From an uncultured Ignavibacteria bacterium (GTDB lineage: Bacteria; Zixibacteria; MSB-5A5; CAIYYT01): 64,000 bases of DNA. Position 1 is the stretch's first letter. Every line of letters starts with the position of its first letter. The notes under the pieces were generated by a model. The model searched no databases. It had not been told where the DNA came from and saw only the letters and a program-made list of their open reading frames with translations. Location: NCBI GenBank assembly GCA_964537215.1, contig CAZIBI010000018.1:16122-80121 (forward strand), written 5' to 3'. The translations under genes were made by a program, and so were the position numbers. Of this stretch, positions 7,488-61,842 are shown in pieces.

Positions 7488-8855
7488 TTAAAACGAAAAA
7501 TGCGCCCTCATGATGATCGACATATAGCTTTCCGCGTCGGGTCCAGCCCAGTCTTCACTCGGCTTGAAGTAGTTCAACTCCCACGACCAGCCGGTGCGCT
7601 GATGCATATCATAACGAAGGAAGAAATCCAACTCCGTGCCGATCGACTTGCTCGTTTCGTCATCAACTCCTGTTGAGTACTCGACACTCGAGCGTAGCAT
7701 GTGCAGATCCAATCCCGTCTTGAGCTTTTTCGAAGGATAATAGGCGATTCGTCCAATGAGATCAGTCATGCCATAGGCGAGCATTCCGCCGAACAAATCG
7801 GCGCGCCCCAGCGGCTCGTGGCTTGAGCCAAATTGATCCGTCCAAAGTTTGTACTTATCTTCATCCTCGCCATCATCGCCCGAGGTCATGTCGATACCCA
7901 CACCAAACGCGAGCGGGCGTTCATACTCGCCCATATAGAAGAATGCATCCGCCTGCAGCAAGTAAGCGCTAATGTCCTGCTTATCATCGTCGTTTGGTCC
8001 GAATCGGAACTTCCCGGTTTGAAGTCCCAAATTTCCCTCAATGAGCAGATTCTTGCCAATATCAAAGCGGCCGTAGGAGCCGAGCGTGTACAGATGCACG
8101 CGGCGATGCCCGCCAATCATGAAGTTGTCGCGGTCATAATATGCGAACGGCATCAGGCCGATCTTGGGGACAAAGATATTTAATCCCATGAAATCATGGT
8201 CATCGTCGCCGGCAATGGCGTTCTCGTCAACCTTTAAGACCAGCAACTCGCCGCCGAGAGCAGTTCCAAACTCCGGTTGAAAGGTGTCTTTCAAAATTTC
8301 GATCCGCTCGATCCAATTCGGGTCATTCGGATTTTGAACTTCGTCGTAGTGGGTGAACATTTTCTTGTCGCCCAGGTAGAATACGCCGCCATCATAGCTC
8401 CGGCTAATATCCCAGCTCTCGTCGCCGATGATACGCTCGTTCGCCACTTGGTAGCGCATATGCCCGATACGGCCGCCGATATTGCGGCCCAGGCAATCGT
8501 CAACCGAAATGTACATCTGCGATATCGCGACGGTCGGATCGAAAGCGCCCGACGACTCGCCGCCGCCCGATCCCAAAACCTTCCAAGCTTGAAGCTCCAC
8601 CACCCCTTGCTCTTTTTCCTTAGGCAGAATGTTCAGCGTCAGCCGCGTGCGGAAATCGTGGTGCGTGTACGCCGGAGTTTCAAAGAAGTCATTCGTGTAA
8701 TTCAAGCCGTAACGCAAATTACCGTGAACCCGCAACAGGTCGTCCAGATTGATCGTTGTCTCGGATGCGCGGAAAATGTTGTCGACGGCCGCCTGGGTCG
8801 GCGCCGTCGCCAAAGCGACAAACAAGGCAAGAACGAATATTCCTCGATAGCTCAT
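7488..8855 (-). CDS. Outer-membrane beta-barrel protein (porin-like), function unknown
   Basis: The ORF track start (8879) is a TTG. SD GGAGGA lies 9 nt upstream of the ATG at 8855, giving 'MSYRGIFVLALFVALATAPTQA' as signal peptide. The C-terminus ends in 'RAHFSF', a typical beta-barrel terminal aromatic. Alternating hydrophobic beta-strand patterns run throughout. Confidence 0.5.
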   Translation of the reverse strand: MSYRGIFVLALFVALATAPTQAAVDNIFRASETTINLDDLLRVHGNLRYGLNYTNDFFETPAYTHHDFRTRLTLNILPKEKEQGVVELQAWKVLGSGGGESSGAFDPTVAISQMYISVDDCLGRNIGGRIGHMRYQVANERIIGDESWDISRSYDGGVFYLGDKKMFTHYDEVQNPNDPNWIERIEILKDTFQPEFGTALGGELLVLKVDENAIAGDDDHDFMGLNIFVPKIGLMPFAYYDRDNFMIGGHRRVHLYTLGSYGRFDIGKNLLIEGNLGLQTGKFRFGPNDDDKQDISAYLLQADAFFYMGEYERPLAFGVGIDMTSGDDGEDEDKYKLWTDQFGSSHEPLGRADLFGGMLAYGMTDLIGRIAYYPSKKLKTGLDLHMLRSSVEYSTGVDDETSKSIGTELDFFLRYDMHQRTGWSWELNYFKPSEDWAGPDAESYMSIIMRAHFSF

Positions 8856-9021
8856 TTGCATGAATCCTCCTGCTTGCAAAGGTTAGCTTCTGTCGGCCGC
8901 GCGATTCCGGCGCCTGGCCATTTTGTTCTGGCATGATAATTTGTTGTCCTAATATGGCGAACATGGATGAGATTCGTCAACAAAAAATTCGAACGGTCGC
9001 AATGACGAGAAATTAGCATGG

Positions 9022-52554: not shown

Positions 52555-53226
52555 ATGCAGAAGCTACTCAAAGATGCGGTCATTTTCCGGGAGCTTGATT
52601 CGGAAGAATTCAAAGCGATGGAAGAGATCACCCAATTACGACATGTCGACGGCGACGCGATGCTGTTTTTCGAAGGGGATCCAGCGAACGGTTTCTTCGT
52701 GCTGCTGTCGGGACGCGTGCGGATCTACAAGTCTACTGCGGATGGCAAAGAGTTTACCCTTCATCAGATAACGCCCGGCCAGGTGTTTGCAGAAGCGGCG
52801 ATCTTTCGGGGAAACACCTATCCGGCCAATTGTATGGCGATGGAAGACTCCGAAGTCGCGTTCATCCCGAAAGACCAGTTCATCCGGCTGATTACCAAGT
52901 ATCCCAATATCTCGCTGAAAATCATCGGCAGCTTATCGCGATGGCTGCGGGAATTTGCCGCCAAACTGGAAGATCTGTCGTTGAAAGAAGTTCCGGCGCG
53001 GCTTGCGACTTATTTGTTGCGGCAGCGGCAAAGATTGAAGTCGGATAGTTTTGAGCTGGACATCACTAAGGCCGAACTAGCCAGCGAATTAGCCACGATC
53101 AGCGAGACCCTTTCGCGTAGTCTGAAGAAATTGAAGGACTTAGAGGTAATTGCCGTGGATGGCAAGCGCATTACCATTCTCGATTCCGACCACCTTGATT
53201 CTATTGCTGCTGGGGAAAAAATCTAA
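52555..53226 (+). CDS. Crp/Fnr-family transcriptional regulator (cNMP-binding domain plus C-terminal HTH)
   Basis: 223 aa. 'AMLFFEGDPANGFFVLLSGRVRIYK' is a cNMP-binding beta-roll. C-terminal 'TKAELASELATISETLSRSLKKL' is an HTH. No N-terminal Cys cluster, so probably not a classical FNR. Confidence 0.85.
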   Translation: MQKLLKDAVIFRELDSEEFKAMEEITQLRHVDGDAMLFFEGDPANGFFVLLSGRVRIYKSTADGKEFTLHQITPGQVFAEAAIFRGNTYPANCMAMEDSEVAFIPKDQFIRLITKYPNISLKIIGSLSRWLREFAAKLEDLSLKEVPARLATYLLRQRQRLKSDSFELDITKAELASELATISETLSRSLKKLKDLEVIAVDGKRITILDSDHLDSIAAGEKI

Positions 53227-53312
53227 TCGAATTGACTTAAATCAAGGACTCATTGGGCCCACTTTCCGATCCTGACTTTGAAGGAGTTAAGATCCTTCGA
53301 AGGATTGTGAAG

Positions 53313-54446
53313 ATGGTTATGAATAGAGCACGTGATAGCAACAGCGGCGGCGAAAGCACGCCAACCGTTAACTCCAAGCCCAAAGTCACAAAGAACCGTC
53401 AGGCCTCAATCCAGAAATGGCGGCTAGCCGTTCAGGTCGGATTCGCTTTGCTCTGCGTTTGGATCGGGATCGAGATGCACGTTTTCGTGAAGTATCTCGA
53501 ATCGGGCGGATCGACGGCTTTCATTCAACGCCCCCCCGGCGTCGAAGGGTTCCTGCCGATTAGTTCGCTGATGAGCCTGTACTATTTCTTCCTGTCGGGA
53601 GAAATTCATCCGGCGCATCCGGCAGGGATGGTGATTCTCGTCGCGATCATAATGCTGTCGCTGGTCTTTGGGAAGGCGTTCTGCGCGTGGCTCTGCCCGG
53701 TAGGATTAATCTCCGAGGCGCTGGGCGATCTGGGGCAGAAGATATTTCGCCGGCGGATTACGATGCCGCGCTGGCTGGATTATCCGCTGCGGAGTTTGAA
53801 GTATCTGCTGCTGGCATTTTTCGTCTACTCGATTTTCTTCGTGATGGGCAAGTTCGCGCTGCGGGCCTTTCTCGACGGCGACTACAATCTCGTTTCCGAT
53901 ATCAAGATGTACTATTTCTTCGCGCAGATTTCGAAGTTGTCGATGATCGTGATCGGCGCACTAGTGCTGCTTTCGATTCCATTGCGGGGATTCTGGTGCC
54001 GGAATTTGTGTCCGTACGGTGCGCTGCTGGGGCTGCTATCGTTGGCGTCGCCGCACAAGATCAAGCGCAATCCAGTGTCGTGCATTGATTGCGGTAAGTG
54101 TGCGCTGAAGTGCCCGTCGTTTATCAAAGTCGACAAAGTCAAGACGGTCATTTCCGACGAGTGCACTTCGTGCATGGCTTGCGTCGATGTCTGTCCGGTC
54201 GCGGATACACTTGAGGTGAAGTCGCTGGTCACGCGCAAACCGGTGCACAAGCGCTGGGTGGCGATCGCGACGGTGGGGATATTCGTTGCGATTACCGGAC
54301 TCGGAATGCTCACCGGTTACTGGAACAACAAAGTCACGACTGAAGAGTACCTTCAGCATCAGCAGTACATCGAGGGATATGGACACCCGACCGATCCGGA
54401 TGGACTGTCAAGAATGAATCAAAATACACCGGCGCAAAAGCGCTAA
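53313..54446 (+). CDS. Membrane-bound polyferredoxin-like 4Fe-4S protein, NapH/MauN/CcoG family
   Basis: SD GAAGGA 8 nt before the ATG at 53313. TM helices. 'CAWLCPVG' and 'WCRNLCPYG' are NapH-type CxxCP motifs in membrane loops. Two ferredoxin motifs 'CIDCGKCALKCP' and 'CTSCMACVDVCP'. Confidence 0.75.
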   Translation: MVMNRARDSNSGGESTPTVNSKPKVTKNRQASIQKWRLAVQVGFALLCVWIGIEMHVFVKYLESGGSTAFIQRPPGVEGFLPISSLMSLYYFFLSGEIHPAHPAGMVILVAIIMLSLVFGKAFCAWLCPVGLISEALGDLGQKIFRRRITMPRWLDYPLRSLKYLLLAFFVYSIFFVMGKFALRAFLDGDYNLVSDIKMYYFFAQISKLSMIVIGALVLLSIPLRGFWCRNLCPYGALLGLLSLASPHKIKRNPVSCIDCGKCALKCPSFIKVDKVKTVISDECTSCMACVDVCPVADTLEVKSLVTRKPVHKRWVAIATVGIFVAITGLGMLTGYWNNKVTTEEYLQHQQYIEGYGHPTDPDGLSRMNQNTPAQKR

Positions 54447-54467
54447 TCAATAGAAGAGGTTTATCGC

Positions 54468-55706
54468 ATGAGTGAATTAATAAACAACGCCAGCAAACGC
54501 CGAGAATTGCTGAAGCACCTGATATTGCAATTGCACAAGGGCGAGGCCGCCGACCAGGTGCGGACGCAGTTGCAGCGCATTCTTGGCCAGGTACCCTACG
54601 ATGAAGTCATGGCTGTCGAAAAAGAATTGATCGACGAGGGTCTGCCGTTGACGGAAGTGTTGAAGATGTGCGACATCCACAGTGCTGCGCTCAAAGGCGG
54701 AATCGATACTTCGGCGGCCAAATCCGCGCCGGCTGGGCATCCGGTTGATACGTTGCTGAAAGAAAATCGTGCGATCGAATGGGAACTTGAAGGGCTGAAG
54801 AAGGCATACGCGGTGGTGGATTCCGGCGCGACCGGAGATGCGCTCAAGGATGCAGTGGCGCAAGTTCGCTCAAACCTGCACAAGCTATACGATGTCGACA
54901 AACACTACCGGCGCAAAGAGAATCTGATCTTCCCGTTCCTGGAAAAGCACGGAATCACCGGACCGCCAACTGTGATGTGGGGAAAGCATGATCAGATTCG
55001 CGAATTGCTCAAGGCCGCGATTGCGACATTCGAGCAGACGGAGGAGTTCAATGCTGACGAAGCGCGCACATTGGTGGAACTGGTCTATAGACCGGCGTCG
55101 GACGGCATCGAAGATATGATCTTTAAGGAAGAGCAGATTCTCTTCCCGATGTGCATGGACACGCTTTCGGAACAAGAGTGGTGGCAAGTACATAATCAGA
55201 GTCTGGAAATCGGGTTCTGCTTGTTTGATCCGACAGATGATTGGATGCCATCAGGGGAAACTGCTGTTGCGGGCGAAGGCATGAATGATGAAGGGCGGAT
55301 CCAGTTGCCGTCCGGGAGTATGACTCCAACCGAGTTGAATGCAATCTTGAACACGATCCCGTTTGACCTGACCTTTGTGGACAAGGACGATACGGTGCGT
55401 TATTTCACGCAAGGGCGGGAGCGTATCTTCGATCGCAATCGAGCAATCCTGGGACGCAAGGTGCAACTTTGCCATCCGCCGCACAGCGTGCATATCGTCC
55501 AACGGATCATCGAAGACTTCCGTTCGGGCAAGCAATCGCGGGCGCCGTTTTGGATTACGATCAAGGGGCGATTCATTCATATCGAATATTTTGCGCTGCG
55601 CGACAAGCAGGGCGAGTATCTCGGAACGCTTGAAGTCAGCCAGGACTTAACGGACAAGCGCGCGCTCGAAGGTGAACAACGCCTGCTTGAATACATGAAA
55701 GACTAA
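54468..55706 (+). CDS. DUF438 / hemerythrin-like / PAS three-domain protein (putative redox or gas sensor)
   Basis: 412 aa. N-terminal DUF438-like region. Central hemerythrin-like segment ('ENRAIEWELEGL...HYRRKENLIFPFLEKHG...WGKHDQIRELL'). C-terminal PAS-like domain ('LNAILNTIPFDLTFVDKDDTVRYFTQGRERIF...GRKVQLCHPP'). Confidence 0.6.
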   Translation: MSELINNASKRRELLKHLILQLHKGEAADQVRTQLQRILGQVPYDEVMAVEKELIDEGLPLTEVLKMCDIHSAALKGGIDTSAAKSAPAGHPVDTLLKENRAIEWELEGLKKAYAVVDSGATGDALKDAVAQVRSNLHKLYDVDKHYRRKENLIFPFLEKHGITGPPTVMWGKHDQIRELLKAAIATFEQTEEFNADEARTLVELVYRPASDGIEDMIFKEEQILFPMCMDTLSEQEWWQVHNQSLEIGFCLFDPTDDWMPSGETAVAGEGMNDEGRIQLPSGSMTPTELNAILNTIPFDLTFVDKDDTVRYFTQGRERIFDRNRAILGRKVQLCHPPHSVHIVQRIIEDFRSGKQSRAPFWITIKGRFIHIEYFALRDKQGEYLGTLEVSQDLTDKRALEGEQRLLEYMKD

Positions 55707-55720
55707 GGGAAGGGAACAGT

Positions 55721-56263
55721 ATGGCTCAAGTTGAAATTCTCACGATCACACCCGACACAAAGATCGGACCGCTGTTGGACCGGTATCCACAGTTGGAGGC
55801 GCCGCTGATGAGATTGTCGCCGGCGTACGCGAAACTACGCAATCCGCTTTTGCGCAAGACAGTCGCCAAGGTCGCGACGCTGCAGCAAGTAGCCAAGATC
55901 GGCGAAGTGCCGATCGGGGTTTTGATCAACACGCTGCGGAAGGAACTCGGGATCGAGGAGAAGTGGAGCGGCGGAAGCGGCGAGAAGTCGGATCGCGGCG
56001 ATGTTCCAGACTGGTTCGCACAGGCGAAGATCTCGATGTTGCTGGATGCGGCTCCGATACTCGAAGCGGGCGAGCACCCGCTCAATCGCGTCATGAGTGA
56101 TTTGCAAAAACTGGAACCGGGCGCGATCTACGAACTGGTGACGCCATTCGTGCCGGCGCCGCTGTTGGACGCAGTGAGCAAGAAGGGATTCGAGGTCTGG
56201 TCGCAAAAGCAGTCGGACGGGACGGTGCGATCGTATTTTTGCCGAAATTCGTTTGAGGTGTAG
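55721..56263 (+). CDS. DUF1858 plus DUF2249-like two-domain protein
   Basis: Starts 15 nt after the DUF438 gene. N-terminal 'ITPDTKIGPLLDRYPQLEAPLMRLSPAYAKLRNPLLRKTVAKVATLQQVAKIGEVPIGVLINTL' resembles DUF1858 (ScdA-N-like). C-terminal 'EAGEHPLNRVMSDLQKLEPGAIYELVTPFVPAPLLDAVSKKGFEVW' resembles the DUF2249 / TusA-like fold. Confidence 0.5.
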   Translation: MAQVEILTITPDTKIGPLLDRYPQLEAPLMRLSPAYAKLRNPLLRKTVAKVATLQQVAKIGEVPIGVLINTLRKELGIEEKWSGGSGEKSDRGDVPDWFAQAKISMLLDAAPILEAGEHPLNRVMSDLQKLEPGAIYELVTPFVPAPLLDAVSKKGFEVWSQKQSDGTVRSYFCRNSFEV

Positions 56264-56288: not shown

Positions 56289-56741
56289 CTACAGCTGCTT
56301 CTCCATCTGCAGTGCGTCGCAGTCGTCTTCGTAGTACTTGGCGACGCGGCCGGTGATTTCGTAGCCGGCCTCTTTGTATAGGGCAATGGCGCGTTTGTTG
56401 TCGGCGCGAACTTCCAAAGTGAAGCGATCACAGCCGCGACGGCGTGCTTCTTTTAGACAGACTTCAAGCAAACGCTTGCCAAGACCGCGACCCTGTAAAG
56501 CTGGATCGACAGCGATTGTGTACAAATGCGCTTTAGTGGAGTTCTTGCGCCAGAGAACGATGGCTGATCCAGAAATGACTTTTCCGACGGTCAGCACGAA
56601 GGCGGTAGAGTTGGCTTTGGCGATCAGGTAGCGGTACTGTTTGCGTGTGAAGAGATCGAATTCGAAGCTGCGGTTTTCCAACTCGACCATGCCGCTTAAG
56701 TCTTCTTTGCGCACTCTGCGGACGCGGATAGTTTGCGACAT
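56289..56741 (-). CDS. GNAT-family N-acetyltransferase
   Basis: ATG at 56741 overlaps the upstream TGA (TGATG). Acetyl-CoA motif 'LYTIAVDPALQGRGLGKRLLEVCLKEARRRG' and motif B 'RAIALYKEAGYEITG'. Confidence 0.8.
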   Translation of the reverse strand: MSQTIRVRRVRKEDLSGMVELENRSFEFDLFTRKQYRYLIAKANSTAFVLTVGKVISGSAIVLWRKNSTKAHLYTIAVDPALQGRGLGKRLLEVCLKEARRRGCDRFTLEVRADNKRAIALYKEAGYEITGRVAKYYEDDCDALQMEKQL

Positions 56742-57625
56742 CAACCCCAATCACCCACAAGATACGTTATCAGTTTTTCATACAGTTCCGGCGCTTCCTG
56801 GTCTTCCTCGTCTTGATTGATGGTCGGGTTGTCGTTGACTTCGATTACGAGGTAGCCGTCGTCGGCTTGCTTGAGATCGACGCCGTAGAGGCCGGTGCCA
56901 ATCGCCGCGGCTGCCTGCACGGCAACGTTGATCAACTCCGGGTCGGCTTCGCTGATCGGGATGCCCTTGACTTCACCATAGATGGCACGACCCGCGTCGG
57001 TATAGGTCATGATCTTCCAACGTTTTTTGGGAATCATATACTGGCAGACGAATAACGGCTCGCCGGCAAGTACGCAAACACGCCAGTCGAATTGAGAGCG
57101 GACGAATTTCTGTGCGACAACGCGATCGGCGCGGCGCAGATAACGGGTGCCGACAGCCACGAATTCCTCCGGAGTAGCGACCTTTTCCACATACATCGAA
57201 AAACTCGAGTTAGGCGCCTTAAGAACAAGGGGCGCACCCATCGCTTCGAGCAGCCTTGCGCCGGTGGCGTGGTTCAGATCGGATTCGATCAGGAACTGTG
57301 TTTCCGGCATCGGCACATTTTTGTCCTGCAGATGGCGGTACATGTTGACCTTGTCGCAGCAGATGTAGATTGACTCGGGGTCGTCGATGACGCGGAGCCC
57401 GTTCATTTGGGCGAGACGGGCGGCGACGTAGGAACTATTGAGCGGGTCGGTCAGTGCGCGAATGAAGATGGCGTCGTAGCCGGGAATCTTGTACATGTCG
57501 GGGCGAAAGAGGAAATCCAGGCGGTGGCCGAGCATGTGCGCGACCTGGCCGAGTTTCATCAAGGCTCCCATTTGCTCCGAGCTGCTCATGGTGTAGCGCT
57601 CGACGAAGACACCTATGTTAGCCAA
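56741..57625 (-). CDS. RimK-type ATP-grasp ligase (alpha-L-glutamate ligase-like amidoligase)
   Basis: 294 aa. Aligns by eye with E. coli RimK: 'YDAIFIR' (FDAVIPR), 'CCDKVNMYRHLQD' (ARDKLRSMQLL), 'GAPLVLKAPNSS' (GAPLVVKLVEGT), 'GVDLKQADDGYLVIEVNDNP' ([20 protein letters not shown]). Coupled to flanking genes by overlapping stop/start codons. Confidence 0.75.
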   Translation of the reverse strand: MANIGVFVERYTMSSSEQMGALMKLGQVAHMLGHRLDFLFRPDMYKIPGYDAIFIRALTDPLNSSYVAARLAQMNGLRVIDDPESIYICCDKVNMYRHLQDKNVPMPETQFLIESDLNHATGARLLEAMGAPLVLKAPNSSFSMYVEKVATPEEFVAVGTRYLRRADRVVAQKFVRSQFDWRVCVLAGEPLFVCQYMIPKKRWKIMTYTDAGRAIYGEVKGIPISEADPELINVAVQAAAAIGTGLYGVDLKQADDGYLVIEVNDNPTINQDEEDQEAPELYEKLITYLVGDWG

Positions 57626-58302
57626 GCATCGACTCGTTTCTGGAGATAGAATCGTTCGCGATCATTGAGCTTTGCGAACGGGAGCGGATTGATATCACTA
57701 AGCAGGATGGATTCGTCGCGCAGCTGAATGATGCGCACAACGGCGAGGGGAATCCGCAGCACCCGCCAGATTGCTTCCGCGAGCGGCCGATGCGCAGGAA
57801 CGACACTCCAGCCAAGTATGGCGCGGAAGGTTCCGATCTTGGCGCCGCTAGGAATTTCCTGACAGCAAATCGCGTATTTGAAATTGCGCGTCATCGATTT
57901 TGCGACGCGGTCGACATGACCGTGTCTTTCGACTATGCTATGCCGCGTCATGAAGGGATTGATGGTATCGATAATGACAGGCGGCTCGAAGTGGCCGTTA
58001 GTTATGTACCACTCGGGGACCGGGACGTCGTTGAGCCTTGCTTTTTCGAGCATAAGCGGCGTGATGTAGGCATCGAGCGCTTCTTTACAAGTCGGGTGGA
58101 TCGTCAAGCCGTCGGCTTCGAGATCCAGTGAGTTATAGTATCCAGTTTCAAGGTAATTGTAGTTGCCGGCGAGATTGACCAGGCAGTTTTCATCGCGCAG
58201 GCGGGCGAGGAATCGCTGCCCCCGGGGTTTTGGAATCGTGGAGTCGAGTCGTGTCAACTCCGCGACGATGTTCGTGCTATTACTGTCCTCGTCCGATTGC
58301 AT
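57613..58302 (-). CDS. Hypothetical protein co-operonic with RimK-type ligase and GNAT (possible RLAN-type accessory domain)
   Basis: 229 aa. No motif I can name with certainty. Its 3' end overlaps the ligase start by 13 nt, implying translational coupling. Confidence 0.35.
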   Translation of the reverse strand: MQSDEDSNSTNIVAELTRLDSTIPKPRGQRFLARLRDENCLVNLAGNYNYLETGYYNSLDLEADGLTIHPTCKEALDAYITPLMLEKARLNDVPVPEWYITNGHFEPPVIIDTINPFMTRHSIVERHGHVDRVAKSMTRNFKYAICCQEIPSGAKIGTFRAILGWSVVPAHRPLAEAIWRVLRIPLAVVRIIQLRDESILLSDINPLPFAKLNDRERFYLQKRVDAWLT

Positions 58303-58417
58303 GAAGGTCTTATGAGTGTTTTACCGATTTCCGCATCATGTTCCGCTATTATACTCCGCTTTATTCAATTGCGAAGCATTTTGTCAAATAAAGATCGACA
58401 ATTTCTTGAAATGAGAA

Positions 58418-59128
58418 TCAGGAAGGAACGATGAGTGTCGGAAGTCCCGGCAATGTAGCGCGGTAGAGAGTCAGGGCGCTCTCTTTGGGCATCTTGAGGA
58501 TGATCGTTTCGTGACCTAGCGGTCCCGAGATTGCCTGCTTGATATCGGCGATGGTATTTTGGAATTTTGATCGCGGTTTACCTTCGATGTCCGTACGAAC
58601 GTCGATTGTCAGACCTCCCGCCCAGAGGAGTTGGAAGCGCGACGGCAACTCGCGCTGCATCAGGTCGCCTTTGACATTGGTCGCTTCGCTAATGATCGCG
58701 AGAACAGAATCGGGAGTCATGTCTTGCGCGCCGAAGAGGTGTTTTTCCAAGATCGGGCGAACCAGCGTTCTCTTTTCGCCTAGGAAGTCGTCGGCGAAGT
58801 CCTTCAACTCCGAAGGGTCAGTTTCGAGGAGTTCCATTGGATACTCCCAAACCAAAACGCCATTCAGATGGAGTTGAATGCGCTGTTCGCGGAAATTCAA
58901 GACGAGATAGGGCTTCTTAGAGTCGGCCAGATTGAGTTCGGCTTTGATTAGGCGGTATTCTGATTCAGCGTCGGATTGATTCCACGGTTTGGTCTGCGAC
59001 GCGGATGCGCCGTCAGTTTTGGAGTCGCCGCCGCCACAGGAGATGCAGACTGACAGCGCCAATGCTGAAAGAGCCATAAGAGGCAGCATATTCCAGTTGC
59101 CGCCGGTCTGCTTAGAAGATGTAAACAT
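58418..59128 (-). CDS. Lipoprotein, function unknown; last gene of the L,D-transpeptidase operon
   Basis: Lipobox 'SVCISCGGG'. Start ambiguous: the track's GTG at 59173 overlaps the upstream gene by 62 nt, and the ATGs at 59128 or 59089 reduce or remove the overlap. Confidence 0.4.
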   Translation of the reverse strand: MFTSSKQTGGNWNMLPLMALSALALSVCISCGGGDSKTDGASASQTKPWNQSDAESEYRLIKAELNLADSKKPYLVLNFREQRIQLHLNGVLVWEYPMELLETDPSELKDFADDFLGEKRTLVRPILEKHLFGAQDMTPDSVLAIISEATNVKGDLMQRELPSRFQLLWAGGLTIDVRTDIEGKPRSKFQNTIADIKQAISGPLGHETIILKMPKESALTLYRATLPGLPTLIVPS

Positions 59129-59759
59129 AGGTTCCGACCGGGGTCTGCTTATAGAGCGAGTCCAGATCTTCACTTCCTAATCTTACACAACCGTGTGTTA
59201 CGTTTACACCAAGGAGTCGTTCGTAGATTGTACCATGGATAAAGAAGCCGTCGCCAAAGTCGAGGGCATAGTCGCCCATGACGTTGGGGTCAAGGCGATC
59301 CGATTCTTTCTTGGGGACTTCTTCGCCCTCTTCAATGAATGCCCAGTCGGGTTTGCGCCACCAGGGCTCAGTTACTTTTCGGCGAATCTTGAAAATGCCG
59401 CGCGGGGTATTGAATATCCACTTCCGTCCGGTGACCGAATCAATCAATTCACCACCCGAACCGGTGGAGCAGCGGGCATCAAGCAGAATCTTATCTTTGG
59501 TACGCATGTAAATGCGATTGGCATGGGTATCGATGACGATATAGGGTTTGGCCGGAGTCAGTTTTTCAAGAGTCTTGCGTGCGGTTGCAAGTTCCTTTTG
59601 CGCCTTCTTTTCGTCCTTGGGCAGTTCAGTCATCAAAGTGTCGACCGAATAGCCTTCGGCGATAACTTCTGGTTGTTCGCGATTGATCGCCAGGACAAAG
59701 AATGCGATGGCGGCAATCGTGAAGACCGGCAGGATAACGAATAAGACTAACTTCTTCAT
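59112..59759 (-). CDS. L,D-transpeptidase (YkuD domain)
   Basis: ATG at 59759 overlaps the upstream TGA (ATGA). Signal/TM 'LVLFVILPVFTIAAIAFFVLAI'. Catalytic 'FFIHGTIYERLLGVNVTHGCVRL' (His...Cys motif). Confidence 0.8.
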   Translation of the reverse strand: MKKLVLFVILPVFTIAAIAFFVLAINREQPEVIAEGYSVDTLMTELPKDEKKAQKELATARKTLEKLTPAKPYIVIDTHANRIYMRTKDKILLDARCSTGSGGELIDSVTGRKWIFNTPRGIFKIRRKVTEPWWRKPDWAFIEEGEEVPKKESDRLDPNVMGDYALDFGDGFFIHGTIYERLLGVNVTHGCVRLGSEDLDSLYKQTPVGTYVYIF

Positions 59760-60832
59760 GGCCACTGATCCGATTTTCTAACGATGGTAACCGGCGTTCC
59801 AACTGATACAAACTTCATGATATGATCCATATCGCTATTCGTCAGTGCTACGCAGCCTTCCGTCCAGTCGCGGTTCTTTCCGCCGTCGCCGTGGATTTCA
59901 ATCCAGCCGCCGATGCGAGCACGTTTGGAAATGACGCCTTTGCGTTTATTGTCGGCGAAGCGTTTTCTGTCATAGTCATTTGGGTAATCCAATAATAGTG
60001 CACGATAGAACTTACTTCTATTGTTTTCTTTGACTACCCGATATTTCCCTTCCGGGGTGGCGGCGTCACCAGAGAAGAGTTTCTGTCTCGATGAATTATA
60101 ACCGAGTTCCGAGTCATAGGTGCGCAGTAATTTGCCGCCTTTGACCAGATAGGTCTTGTGCGCGACCTTATCCACTATCACAGCATAACTGTTGGCGGCG
60201 CGGGAAAGTTCCAAGGTCTCTGTGACCCAGCGGCGCCAGATGCTGATTTGGCGGGATTCGTCTTGTTGATGTTCTTCGAGCGCAGCGCCAACCTGCTTGA
60301 GGAAATTGCGTGCTTTGAGCATGGAGACGCGCGCTTCGTCGTATTCGCCAGTTGCCAAGAGCTTGCGGGCCATATCCAGGTTGAGGCGGGCACGCTGCCA
60401 GTCGTCGCGGGTGTTGAAATTCGCCAGCGATCCGTTGAGGGCTTCGTTCCATTCTTCAAGCTCGGTGTTCAATTCGGCGAGATTGGTTTGGGAGACTGTT
60501 CGGACAGTTTCGATGCTGTCGATTGCCTTGGTGCGGGCTTCGGTAGCCCGGCGATAAGCCATCGCCAGAATCGAATCTGCGTTGTCGAAATCGCGGAATG
60601 GCGCCAGCTTGCCATTTTCGCGTGCCATTGCCATCCAGCCAGTGTTAACGAGTTGTTCGGCATCGCGATAGATGACCTCGGCATAGCGAATAGCGCCGGC
60701 ATCTTCCGCCAAGCGCAAAGCTTGCCGGGCGTTTTCAAGGCTAAGCACCGGCGGGTCTTCGCAGCCGGCAAAGAGGAAGACCAGAGCCGATAGGACTAGG
60801 AGTAGTAGAGAAGCTCGTCTGAAGTAGCGCAC
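59756..60832 (-). CDS. L,D-transpeptidase (YkuD domain) lipoprotein with N-terminal helical domain
   Basis: GTG at 60832 lies 6 nt after GGGGA and gives the signal peptide 'MRYFRRASLLLLVLSALVFLFAGC' (lipobox); the track TTG at 60868 is less likely. Catalytic 'WIEIHGDGGKNRDWTEGCVAL'. Confidence 0.75.
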   Translation of the reverse strand: MRYFRRASLLLLVLSALVFLFAGCEDPPVLSLENARQALRLAEDAGAIRYAEVIYRDAEQLVNTGWMAMARENGKLAPFRDFDNADSILAMAYRRATEARTKAIDSIETVRTVSQTNLAELNTELEEWNEALNGSLANFNTRDDWQRARLNLDMARKLLATGEYDEARVSMLKARNFLKQVGAALEEHQQDESRQISIWRRWVTETLELSRAANSYAVIVDKVAHKTYLVKGGKLLRTYDSELGYNSSRQKLFSGDAATPEGKYRVVKENNRSKFYRALLLDYPNDYDRKRFADNKRKGVISKRARIGGWIEIHGDGGKNRDWTEGCVALTNSDMDHIMKFVSVGTPVTIVRKSDQWP

Positions 60833-60883
60833 TGTTGATCCCCGCAAATCAACGGATGTACCGTTCAAATTAGAAATTAATCG

Positions 60884-60909
60884 GGGGACAGCGTTTCCGT
60901 TGTCCCCCG
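60884..60909 (-). terminator. Strong hairpin (11 bp stem with one G-U) downstream of the DUF4398-like lipoprotein gene
   Basis: GGGGGACAGCG-tttc-CGTTGTCCCCC, followed on the minus strand by GATTAATTTCTAATTT. Confidence 0.5.
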
Positions 60910-60944
60910 GACTTATGCACGTACCTTATAGTATCGGCTAAGTG

Positions 60945-61544
60945 CTACATGCACTTTTTGCCCTTGGCTTCGTACGCTTTGCAAATCTCAGCCGTGATAG
61001 AAGCTATCCGCGACTTGATCGATTCGAATTTCGTGCGAGCTACCAAGTACTTTCCGCCGTTGAAGTCGCCTTCGGCAACTGTCCACTCGGAACCAAGATT
61101 GGTAAGGTCGTTCTTAATCAGTTCCAATTCCGCTTTATTGTCCTTGCCTTTGGGGGCTTTGTCAAGCAGGACCATGGCAGAATCAAGCATTCCCTTGATT
61201 TCGCCCATCATGGTGGTCACTTCAGCTTTGACTCTTTCCTTTTCGGCGTTGGCTTGATTGACGACGTCAGTCGACATCGTGGCGACGCGTTCAAACATAG
61301 CCTTGGACTCGCCGTAGCTACGGAACAGGGCGAACTTGCCATCCTGCTCGGTCTTCTTGGCGTTGGCGGCGTTAAGAGAATCTGACAACATACGGAAAGC
61401 CTGCGGAGCGTACTGCTCGGCTTCAGCGGCCTTAGCGTTGTTGATTGCGCTTTGCGCGGCAGCCATTTCGGCTTCCGGCGGCTTGCTGCAGCCTGCCATT
61501 ACTATCAACGAAATAGCAATAACAGCTAACAATGCCTTTCTCAT
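60945..61544 (-). CDS. Alpha-helical lipoprotein (DUF4398-like)
   Basis: SD AAAGGAAG upstream of the ATG at 61544. Lipobox 'VMAGCSK'. Ala/Lys/Glu-rich, coiled-coil-like. 199 aa. Confidence 0.5.
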   Translation of the reverse strand: MRKALLAVIAISLIVMAGCSKPPEAEMAAAQSAINNAKAAEAEQYAPQAFRMLSDSLNAANAKKTEQDGKFALFRSYGESKAMFERVATMSTDVVNQANAEKERVKAEVTTMMGEIKGMLDSAMVLLDKAPKGKDNKAELELIKNDLTNLGSEWTVAEGDFNGGKYLVARTKFESIKSRIASITAEICKAYEAKGKKCM

Positions 61545-61842
61545 TTTGGTACTTCCTTTCTTTCCTCGATAGGAGCGGTTAAAAAAAAAGGACACGCGAA
61601 AGCTGCCTTAAGCTTACACCCATCCCACAAGGTTGTTTTGTTCAGTTAACTAATTTTTTCATGTCCCCCGGATTTTTCAATCCGGCACTATCCGTCAGAT
61701 TGCTCGGAATTCGCAACATTCCACTCACGCTTGCGCATCCTTTCACAATCCCTCATCAGACAAGGGGCGAATAAATGGTGTGTTATGAACTCTGTCAACA
61801 AGTTTTTAATATAACTTATTAATTCTTAGTAATTTTGTCTTG

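Follow-up and report, generated by a model that had tools for sequence, protein, structure and literature searches.

We examined a 64-kb stretch of DNA from an uncultured bacterium of the Zixibacteria (contig CAZIBI010000018.1; hereafter, the window), which carries a cassette of three minus-strand genes, here called g1, g2, and g3. The first gene, g1 (57613–58302), encodes a stand-alone RLAN protein of 229 amino acids from an ATG start, and g2 (56741–57625) encodes a RimK/LysX-superfamily ATP-grasp amide ligase of 294 amino acids from a TTG start, both as given in the open reading frame (ORF) listing. The third gene, g3 (56289–56741), encodes a RimI/NAT-like GNAT N-acetyltransferase of 150 amino acids, counted from the ATG at 56741. 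An earlier reading made from the letters alone (the sequence-only reading) had described three chained minus-strand genes with an overlap at 57613–57625 and a TGATG at 56741, and inspection of the ORFs and the sequence showed this to be correct to the base. A genome scan returned 80 related loci, and protein-based look-ups added more, giving ~90 loci overall; ORFs were called and clustered in 88 loci plus the window. Because the ORFs lie as placed, the junctions are constant, the three families are common to many loci, and the genes show purifying selection, our comparison at the sequence level confirmed a conserved operon with predicted translational coupling.

The g1/g2 overlap (57613–57625, minus strand) spans 13 nt, TTGGCTAACATAG. 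The g1 stop codon is the TAG at 57615–57613, and the TTG start of g2 at 57625–57623 lies inside the final codons of g1. An in-frame stop of g2 is found upstream at 57664–57662, after which this TTG is the sole available start. Such a start is unusual, but we consider it real because the same geometry recurs in nearly all 82 distinct junctions collected from related loci. In 70 of these, the codon at the g2-start position is ATG; GTG takes its place in 7 and TTG in 3, namely the window and two close relatives. The remaining 2 have a non-start codon there, and in one of them (L042) the g1 stop is placed differently. The g1 stop is TAG in 81 of the 82 junctions, and the 13-nt overlap is also kept in the distant RLAN subfamilies represented by loci L093, L097, and L099. 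In the window, the g2 start codon overlaps a conserved tryptophan codon of g1, and in the g2 frame the g1 TAG falls within codons for Ile-Gly. The constancy of the junction can be explained in the same way, since the start overlaps an invariant g1 tryptophan codon (xTGG) and the TAG is read within (A/T)TA-GGx, or Ile/Leu-Gly, in the ligase.

At the second junction (56739–56743, minus strand), the sequence reads TGATG, and the TGA of g2 (56743–56741) shares its A with an ATG (56741–56739). An alternative TTG start at 56750 would extend g3 to 153 amino acids (56289–56750). In close relatives, the g2/g3 junction is TGATG, TAATG, or TAGTG, with the last base of the stop serving as the first base of the start. 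These stop/start overlaps favor the ATG at 56741, the start chosen in the sequence-only reading, and hence the 150-amino-acid product.

The Pfam name of RLAN (PF14401), "RimK-like ATPgrasp N-terminal domain," implies an N-terminal fusion to RimK-like ligases, and the reading frame of g2 is −1 with respect to that of g1. Both points would fit a single RLAN-RimK gene that was split by a frameshift or an assembly error, or that is expressed by programmed −1 frameshifting. However, the same split, the same 13-nt overlap, and the same start-codon position are found in ~80 independent assemblies, the g2 start is in many loci directly preceded by in-frame stops, and the junction contains no slippery heptamer. 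We ruled out a fusion or frameshift on these grounds, and the chance that the split is an artifact is practically negligible. In addition, an exhaustive phmmer search of 1.84 billion representatives gave 90 relatives of g1, all 90 of which are 60–330 amino acids long and so stand-alone. No fused RLAN-RimK relative was found in that single-sequence search, nor did a profile search of 5.8 billion proteins reveal one. By these sequence comparisons, a split pair of genes is the usual state in this RLAN subfamily.

Gaps of 115 and 25 bp flank the cassette. The 115-bp gap upstream of g1 holds a sigma-70-like match (58348–58375, minus strand; TTCGCA, 16 nt, TATAAT), which is a possible promoter of the cassette's own, judged by its sequence; matches to the promoter consensus in the region numbered 2, against 1.8 expected in shuffled sequence. 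No terminator-like site was found.

The ligase and the RLAN protein

The g2 product matched Pfam RimK at 37.9 bits and ATP-grasp_3 at 33.5 bits, and its best solved relatives are LysX and ArgX, then RimK. The NCBIfam scores all fell below their cut-offs: 76.1 against 143.4 for TIGR00768 (rimK_fam), 26.1 against 331 for NF007764 (the RimK equivalog), and 70.3 against 275.6 for TIGR02144 (LysX). The sequence-only reading had called g2 a RimK-type ligase, a label that stands at the domain level, through the Pfam RimK match, and fails at the level of TIGR00768 and NF007764. The catalytic positions of ATP-grasp enzymes are a linker lysine, a strand-2 lysine, an aspartate in the kinase-like domain, and an ExN motif (PMC4431377). 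All four are present in g2, as K92, K136, D250, and E262-x-N264, and residues K92, K136, Q172, D180, R182, D250, E262, and N264 are invariant in 18 orthologs. From its sequence, g2 is thus predicted to be a catalytically competent amide ligase of the RimK/LysX superfamily. It is 65–70% identical across phyla, with a mean column identity of 73%. Part of g2 also matched PF14243, the R2K.3 clade, at 32.4 bits against a cut-off of 26.3. R2K.3 enzymes have no linker lysine, carry their second lysine in the RAGNYA loop, and have ExGD instead of ExN (PMC4431377). The linker lysine K92 and a standard E-V-N of g2 rule out membership of that clade.

The C-terminus of g2 reads ...VGDWG (56741–56760), and an end of the form G/R-(D/E)-W-G/N is found in 31 of 78 distinct orthologs. 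LysW, the carrier protein modified by LysX and ArgX, is ~55 amino acids long with an EDWGE tail. The g2 end, found as G(D/E)WG in 40% of orthologs, recalls this tail, and it is a candidate self-acceptor or autoinhibitory tail. Besides g2, no ORF in the window ends in [DE]WG, and no LysW-like small ORF is present in the cassette or elsewhere in the 64 kb.

The sequence-only reading had suggested that gene 1 might be RLAN-like, and a profile search bore this out. Residues 39–221 of g1 matched positions 16–148 of the 150-position Pfam RLAN model at 43.1 bits (gathering cut-off 25; E = 4.4e-11), while no NCBIfam model matched g1 and an RLAN sequence search of the PDB gave no match at E ≤ 10. Pfam presumably describes RLAN as an uncharacterized alpha+beta domain. 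The AlphaFold2 (AF2) model of g1 has a predicted local distance difference test score (pLDDT) of 83 and a predicted template-modeling score (pTM) of 0.80, with residues 1–27 predicted to be disordered. Foldseek comparison of this model with the PDB returned only ATP-grasp enzymes in the top 50, including RimK, ArgX, LysX, PsnB, and D-Ala-D-Ala ligases (Ddl), at E ~5e-8, probability 1.00, and TM ~0.5 over ~200 of the 229 residues. A second AF2 model, of a relative 26% identical to g1 (P0145; pLDDT 82), likewise had only ATP-grasp enzymes as its top matches, with ArgX and LysX first, again at probability 1.0 and TM ~0.5. The literature searched held no statement that RLAN has an ATP-grasp fold.

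Profile-to-profile alignment gave a fainter signal in the same direction. With a narrow RLAN alignment of 18 sequences, hhalign found no match to g2; with a broader alignment of 29 sequences, it matched the g2 alignment weakly (probability 11.6%, E 0.0026), and g1 residues 50–167 lined up with g2 residues 61–185, the register that the fold would predict. This alignment pairs g1 T81 with g2 K92 and g1 D112 with g2 K136. Aligned by eye, the motif order of g1 places R190 at the aspartate position and an LLS-x-x-x-P strand where ExN would be, without a conserved glutamate or asparagine. By the predicted structure, the weak alignment, and this reading of the motifs, g1 does not retain the four catalytic positions, and its order of secondary-structure elements is consistent with an ATP-grasp-like reading. 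From the models, the most fitting reading of g1 is an ancient ATP-grasp module that has degenerated and become catalytically dead, its pre-ATP-grasp domain reduced, and the operon most likely encodes an active ligase together with a pseudo-ligase partner.

The invariant polar residues of g1 include Y48, Y50, Y55, D77, K87, N102, E106, R139, N140, C146, C147, and Q148, a set that argues for a binding role, with nucleotide binding also compatible. The sequence-only reading had offered gene 1 as a possible substrate or carrier. That view finds no support: g1 is a protein of 229 amino acids, strongly constrained by purifying selection and predicted to fold like an ATP-grasp enzyme. Instead, to judge from its sequence conservation, g1 behaves as an obligate partner subunit.

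The acetyltransferase and the conserved core

The g3 product matched Acetyltransf_1 (E = 3e-21), in agreement with the GNAT assignment of the sequence-only reading. Against TIGR01575 (rimI), it scored 88.1 bits, a bare margin over the cut-off of 86.4, and two orthologs of g3 from related cassettes scored 73.6 and 67.9, both below it. Against NF007025, a second RimI equivalog model, g3 reached 53.8 with a cut-off of 173. Eight of its nine top solved relatives are N-alpha-acetyltransferases (6wqb, RimI, Ard1, and Naa30), the exception being 2ge3, a "probable acetyltransferase"; Naa50 and Naa20 appear further down the list among other GNATs.

In the bacterial clade, the third gene of the cassette is a GNAT, and in about two thirds of the loci, it has a fused C-terminal DUF3335/Peptidase_C39_2 papain-like domain. 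In locus L001, this domain has a cysteine and a histidine at papain-like positions, as read by eye. The window and ~25 other loci have the bare GNAT instead; no DUF3335 domain was found in the 64-kb window or within 8 kb of any locus with the short GNAT. On a neighbor-joining tree of g2, loci with the bare GNAT are scattered, a pattern that points to the peptidase domain having been lost independently about seven times or more. On this sequence evidence, the GNAT-peptidase fusion is probably ancestral and has been lost repeatedly, including in the lineage of the window.

Among the 88 loci and the window, only three families are broadly common: g1 (89), g2 (84), and g3 (79). The next real family around the triad reaches 15 loci, and triad members that are absent are mostly absent at contig ends. 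The flanks of the related loci are otherwise unrelated, so that the triad is the sole conserved gene set. ORF clustering, in which ORFs below 50 amino acids were not called, found no additional substrate or carrier ORF of at least 70 amino acids common across loci; the small substrate gene that the sequence-only reading had proposed to look for thus did not emerge. The homologs of g1 are ~200–230 amino acids long, stand-alone, and mostly from Zixibacteria, and the related loci span at least eight phyla. Hosts include Zixibacteria, Tectomicrobia, Acetothermia, an "Alphaproteobacteria" metagenome-assembled genome (MAG), Gemmatimonadota, Eisenbacteria, Calditrichota, Nitrospinota, and Methanomassiliicoccaceae archaea. 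We found no viral or plasmid relatives of the cassette, and no PADLOC defense model matched g1, g2, or g3. The ratio of nonsynonymous to synonymous substitution rates (dN/dS) against three relatives was 0.03–0.09 for g1 and 0.08–0.15 for g3. For g2, it was 0.02–0.04 against two of the three, synonymous sites being saturated against the third. These estimates from the sequences indicate that purifying selection acts on all three genes. The triad synteny that the sequence-only reading proposed to check is therefore conserved, across ~90 loci in many phyla, and we encountered neither an adjacent S6 gene or known pathway nor a known function for gene 1.

The most constant element of the cassette is its first gene pair. 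An overlapping g2 ortholog follows g1 in every locus that extends far enough, archaea included, down to 24% identity in g1, and the distant RLAN subfamilies (24–43% identity) likewise have g1 followed by an overlapping g2 ortholog. The archaeal locus L093 has the same 13-nt overlap, the gene after RLAN in L096 is 39% identical to g2, and L097, L098, and L099 show the same pairing. None of these five loci has a GNAT. Since the pair is kept in distant subfamilies without GNAT and the peptidase domain has been lost repeatedly, the sequence comparison indicates that g1 and g2 form the obligate core, that the acetyltransferase is a common partner, and that the peptidase is dispensable.

A few of these loci have suggestive neighbors. 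In L098 (6001–11432), the pair is followed within the operon by genes for a CxxCxxCC protein, a GCS2 carboxylate-amine ligase, and an ADP-forming acyl-CoA synthetase. In L096 (2783–6699), a CxxCxxCC protein and GCS2 adjoin on the opposite strand, and an F420 ligase gene lies 3.6 kb from the pair of RLAN and ligase genes. An AMP-forming acetyl-CoA synthetase gene stands beside the triad on the same strand in the Tectomicrobia loci L089/L090 (4170–6128), and a CoA_binding/Succ_CoA_lig gene stands beside it in divergent orientation in the "Alphaproteobacteria" MAG (L092; 4516–5967). Such acetyl-CoA synthetase neighbors could supply acetyl-CoA or be a coincidence. Furthermore, ten Zixibacteria loci (L019, L026, L035, L046, L050, L052, L064, L068, L072, and L076) carry a second putative amide-metabolite operon upstream of the triad on the same strand. 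It consists of an AdoMetDC-like protein of 130–160 amino acids, an Acetyltransf_6 GNAT-fold protein, a 450-amino-acid ATP-grasp protein, and an Orn/DAP-type pyridoxal-phosphate (PLP) decarboxylase, with a TetR regulator in nine of the ten.

Proposed product and alternative readings

In 2009, Iyer, Abhiman, Burroughs, and Aravind reportedly predicted, by comparative genomics, systems of RLAN, RimK-like ATP-grasp, and GNAT-papain-peptidase genes, and that work is said to be the source of PF14401. The predicted system has the same three domain families as our cassette, with a GNAT-DUF3335 fusion in most orthologous operons, and its function was a prediction only. As far as that system is described in citing papers, the window differs in having RLAN as a separate gene coupled to the ligase by the 13-nt overlap, in lacking the peptidase domain, and in having an RLAN protein that models as a degenerate ATP-grasp. 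DUF3335 is elsewhere described as often fused to GNAT domains, with the 2009 work cited for it (PMC10318531). We conclude from these sequence comparisons that the cassette is a real, conserved variant of the computationally predicted system. The sequence-only reading had called such cassettes largely uncharacterized, and we too found no functional study of an RLAN/ligase/GNAT system in the literature searched. Papers on fimbrial CfmP and on RloABC turned out to concern other ATP-grasp families.

Several characterized systems share parts of this architecture. With RimK, the cassette shares the ATP-grasp fold, the Pfam RimK domain, the full catalytic set in g2, and, in most relatives, the logic of a ligase plus a peptidase. 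Unlike RimK and RimB, it has a predicted pseudo-ligase partner and a GNAT, the peptidase of its relatives is papain-like rather than retropepsin-like, and no link to S6 was found. LysX and ArgX are the best-scoring solved relatives of g2 and are among the best fold matches of g1; however, no lysine or arginine pathway genes lie near the cassette. Ngg is a bifunctional GNAT and ATP-grasp enzyme that makes the N-acetyl dipeptide N-acetylglutaminylglutamine (PMC8070244). Matches to its model TIGR03103 were weak, at 35 bits for g3 and 14.5 bits for g2 against a cut-off of 569. Unlike the Ngg pathway to the osmolyte N-acetylglutaminylglutamine amide (NAGGN), the cassette has separate polypeptides and an RLAN subunit, with no AsnO-type amidotransferase among its conserved neighbors. 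In mammals, N-acetylaspartylglutamate (NAAG) is made through acetylation by NAT8L and addition of glutamate by RIMKLA or RIMKLB, and it is degraded by the peptidase GCPII (PMC8836185). The likeness to NAAG is a functional analogy only, as the animal genes are unlinked, the peptidase is of another class, and there is no RLAN. 

The enzyme pairs CtaD/CtaG of closthioamide and BtrJ/BtrH of butirosin bear on the orthologs of g3 that carry the GNAT-DUF3335 fusion. Each combines an ATP-grasp enzyme with a papain-fold enzyme related to C39, BtrH, and PF11814 that transfers rather than hydrolyzes; CtaG is a transacylase working with the ATP-grasp enzyme CtaD (PMC7183216). Unlike these thiotemplated systems, which work on carrier proteins, the present one has no conserved carrier, and the cassette in the window has no papain-like domain. 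The combination of ATP-grasp and decarboxylase in the second operon of the ten Zixibacteria loci also recalls closthioamide and butirosin. Overall, scores, residues, and missing partners exclude the cassette as a RimK system proper, a LysX/ArgX-LysW system, an Ngg trio, an R2K.3 system, or a PADLOC defense system.

The reading we favor, to which we give about an even chance, is that the operon makes a short N-acetylated di- or oligopeptide of glutamate type by means of an ATP-dependent amide-bond machine with a dead partner subunit. In this scheme, g2 would activate a carboxylate as an acyl-phosphate and join it to the alpha-amine of an amino acid. Among the characterized members of the superfamily (RimK, LysX/ArgX, MptN, CofF, and RIMKLA/B), glutamate or a close analog is nearly always the amine. 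The g1 and g2 proteins would be made in fixed proportion and form a heteromer, with g1 in place of a second active protomer, where it might hold the acceptor or position the product. The acetyltransferase g3 would then cap the free alpha-amino group using acetyl-CoA, giving a product formally like N-acetylglutaminylglutamine (Ngg) or N-acetylaspartylglutamate (NAT8L with RIMKLA/B). The fused papain-like peptidase of most relatives would hydrolyze or transfer the product, a domain presumably lost in the lineage of the window. We favor a small N-acetyl peptide because GCS2 in the same operon (L098) or nearby (L096) mirrors GshA with GshB, because the module has acetyl- or acyl-CoA synthetase genes beside it in three contexts unrelated to one another, because ten Zixibacteria loci carry an operon of ATP-grasp, PLP-decarboxylase, and GNAT-fold genes just upstream, and because Ngg and NAT8L with RIMKLA/B are precedents for GNAT and ATP-grasp enzymes working together.

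Several points weigh against this assignment. The product is deduced entirely from context; the closest solved relatives of g3 act on the N-termini of proteins or peptides, not on free amino acids; and the high conservation of g2 would suit a macromolecular substrate no less than a metabolite. The neighborhood hints from GCS2 and the CoA synthetases come from a handful of loci. In addition, the view of g1 as a pseudo-enzyme derives from predicted structures and a weak profile alignment (hhalign, 11.6%), and with so many invariant polar residues in its sequence, g1 could have an activity of its own or bind nucleotide.

Some of these same points would suit the main rival reading, a system that modifies proteins, in which g2 would add glutamates or another residue to a protein C-terminus or side chain, g3 would acetylate a protein N-terminus, RLAN would be an adaptor for the target, and the papain-like domain would be an eraser. 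RimK adds glutamates to ribosomal protein S6, and RimI acetylates the N-terminus of S18. Protein N-alpha-acetyltransferases make up nearly all of the closest solved relatives of g3, which itself passes the rimI cut-off by a little, while LysX, ArgX, and RimK, the best solved relatives of the very highly conserved g2, all act on protein C-termini. A writer and eraser pair also has a precedent in RimK acting on S6 with RimB as the eraser (PMC11957051). However, we regard protein modification as somewhat unlikely. The ligase scores far below the RimK equivalog and subfamily cut-offs, and the cassette orthologs of g3 (73.6 and 67.9 bits) miss the rimI cut-off. No target gene is conserved nearby: the sequence-only reading had placed the cassette far from any gene for ribosomal protein S6, and indeed no rpsF-like sequence is present in the window. 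The archaeal loci and two distant loci lack a GNAT, and the GCS2 gene in the same operon at one locus fits the assembly of a metabolite better.

Two narrower readings invoke particular acceptors. Addition of an alpha-linked glutamate to a cofactor carboxylate, as by MptN on tetrahydromethanopterin (H4MPT) or by CofF on F420, finds some footing in weak matches of g2 to MptN (46 bits) and CofF (30 bits), in the presence of the pair in Methanomassiliicoccaceae, and in the F420 ligase gene 3.6 kb away in one archaeal locus. Those scores fall far short of the 350 and 300 required by the equivalog models, the hosts are mostly bacteria in which F420 and H4MPT are not known, and the GNAT and the peptidase would be left unexplained, all of which makes a cofactor tail highly unlikely. 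A role in the cell wall, with the ligase and the GNAT modifying peptidoglycan stem peptides alongside two upstream L,D-transpeptidases, strikes us as more improbable still. Some ATP-grasp ligases do act on peptidoglycan precursors, and in the window and ~14 relatives the triad is preceded on its own strand by two YkuD genes and a gene for a lipoprotein-like protein. However, the YkuD link is largely a feature of the sub-clade that holds the window, the two outliers being L043 and, at a different position, L045, and ~75 other loci have unrelated neighbors. The 115-bp gap with its promoter-like site also parts the YkuD block from the triad, and the proteins of that block look exported, whereas the triad proteins have no signal peptides, as judged from sequence.

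Returning to the active ligase with a dead partner, a more far-reaching version would make RLAN the constant 1:1 partner of an active ATP-grasp in an asymmetric ligase, part of a "writer/capper/eraser" system spread over many phyla. Such a system might produce new N-acetylated oligo-amino-acid metabolites or a peptide tag on proteins, with the dead subunit holding the chain or selecting the acceptor and the papain-like domain reversing the reaction. We think this version is unlikely. Reading RLAN as a dead copy of the ligase would nevertheless turn an "unknown accessory domain" into a testable active/inactive ATP-grasp heteromer, for which we found no precedent in the literature searched. Should a new N-acetyl peptide be the product, the physiology of uncultured phyla of sediment and groundwater would gain a compatible solute or a signaling molecule; should a protein be the target, the cassette would represent a new peptide-tagging system. 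Our analysis overturns nothing, and it offers a concrete model, an active/dead ATP-grasp pair with a capping acetyltransferase, for an orphan system found in many uncultured phyla.

Surrounding genes in the window

Four genes lie just upstream of the cassette on the same strand (58418–61595, minus strand), and this block travels with the triad only in the sub-clade of the window, ~14 loci. They encode a DUF4398-like protein of 216 amino acids (no Pfam match at 1e-5), a 370-amino-acid protein with a C-terminal YkuD domain, a YkuD L,D-transpeptidase of 217 amino acids, and a lipoprotein-like protein of 251 amino acids with no family match. In L005, the counterpart of the 370-amino-acid YkuD protein also has a faint DUF4398 match. 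On the other side, a plus-strand cluster converges on the cassette (52555–56263), comprising genes for a Crp/Fnr regulator, a polyferredoxin-like Fer4_5 membrane protein, a DUF438-hemerythrin-PAS protein, and a DUF1858/DUF2249 protein. This cluster is syntenic with L005 and looks like a redox or NO/O2-sensing set.

No Rfam family, riboswitch or other RNA, reached its gathering score anywhere in the 64 kb. A 463-amino-acid ORF with no Pfam match at E ≤ 1e-5 lies between the genes for a TPR protein and aconitase (7488–8879, minus strand). The remaining window looks like ordinary chromosome, with genes for Lon, aconitase, FeoB, a TonB receptor with HmuY, ABC exporters, GH57, a MiaB-like radical SAM enzyme, and a Ser/Thr kinase with TPR repeats.

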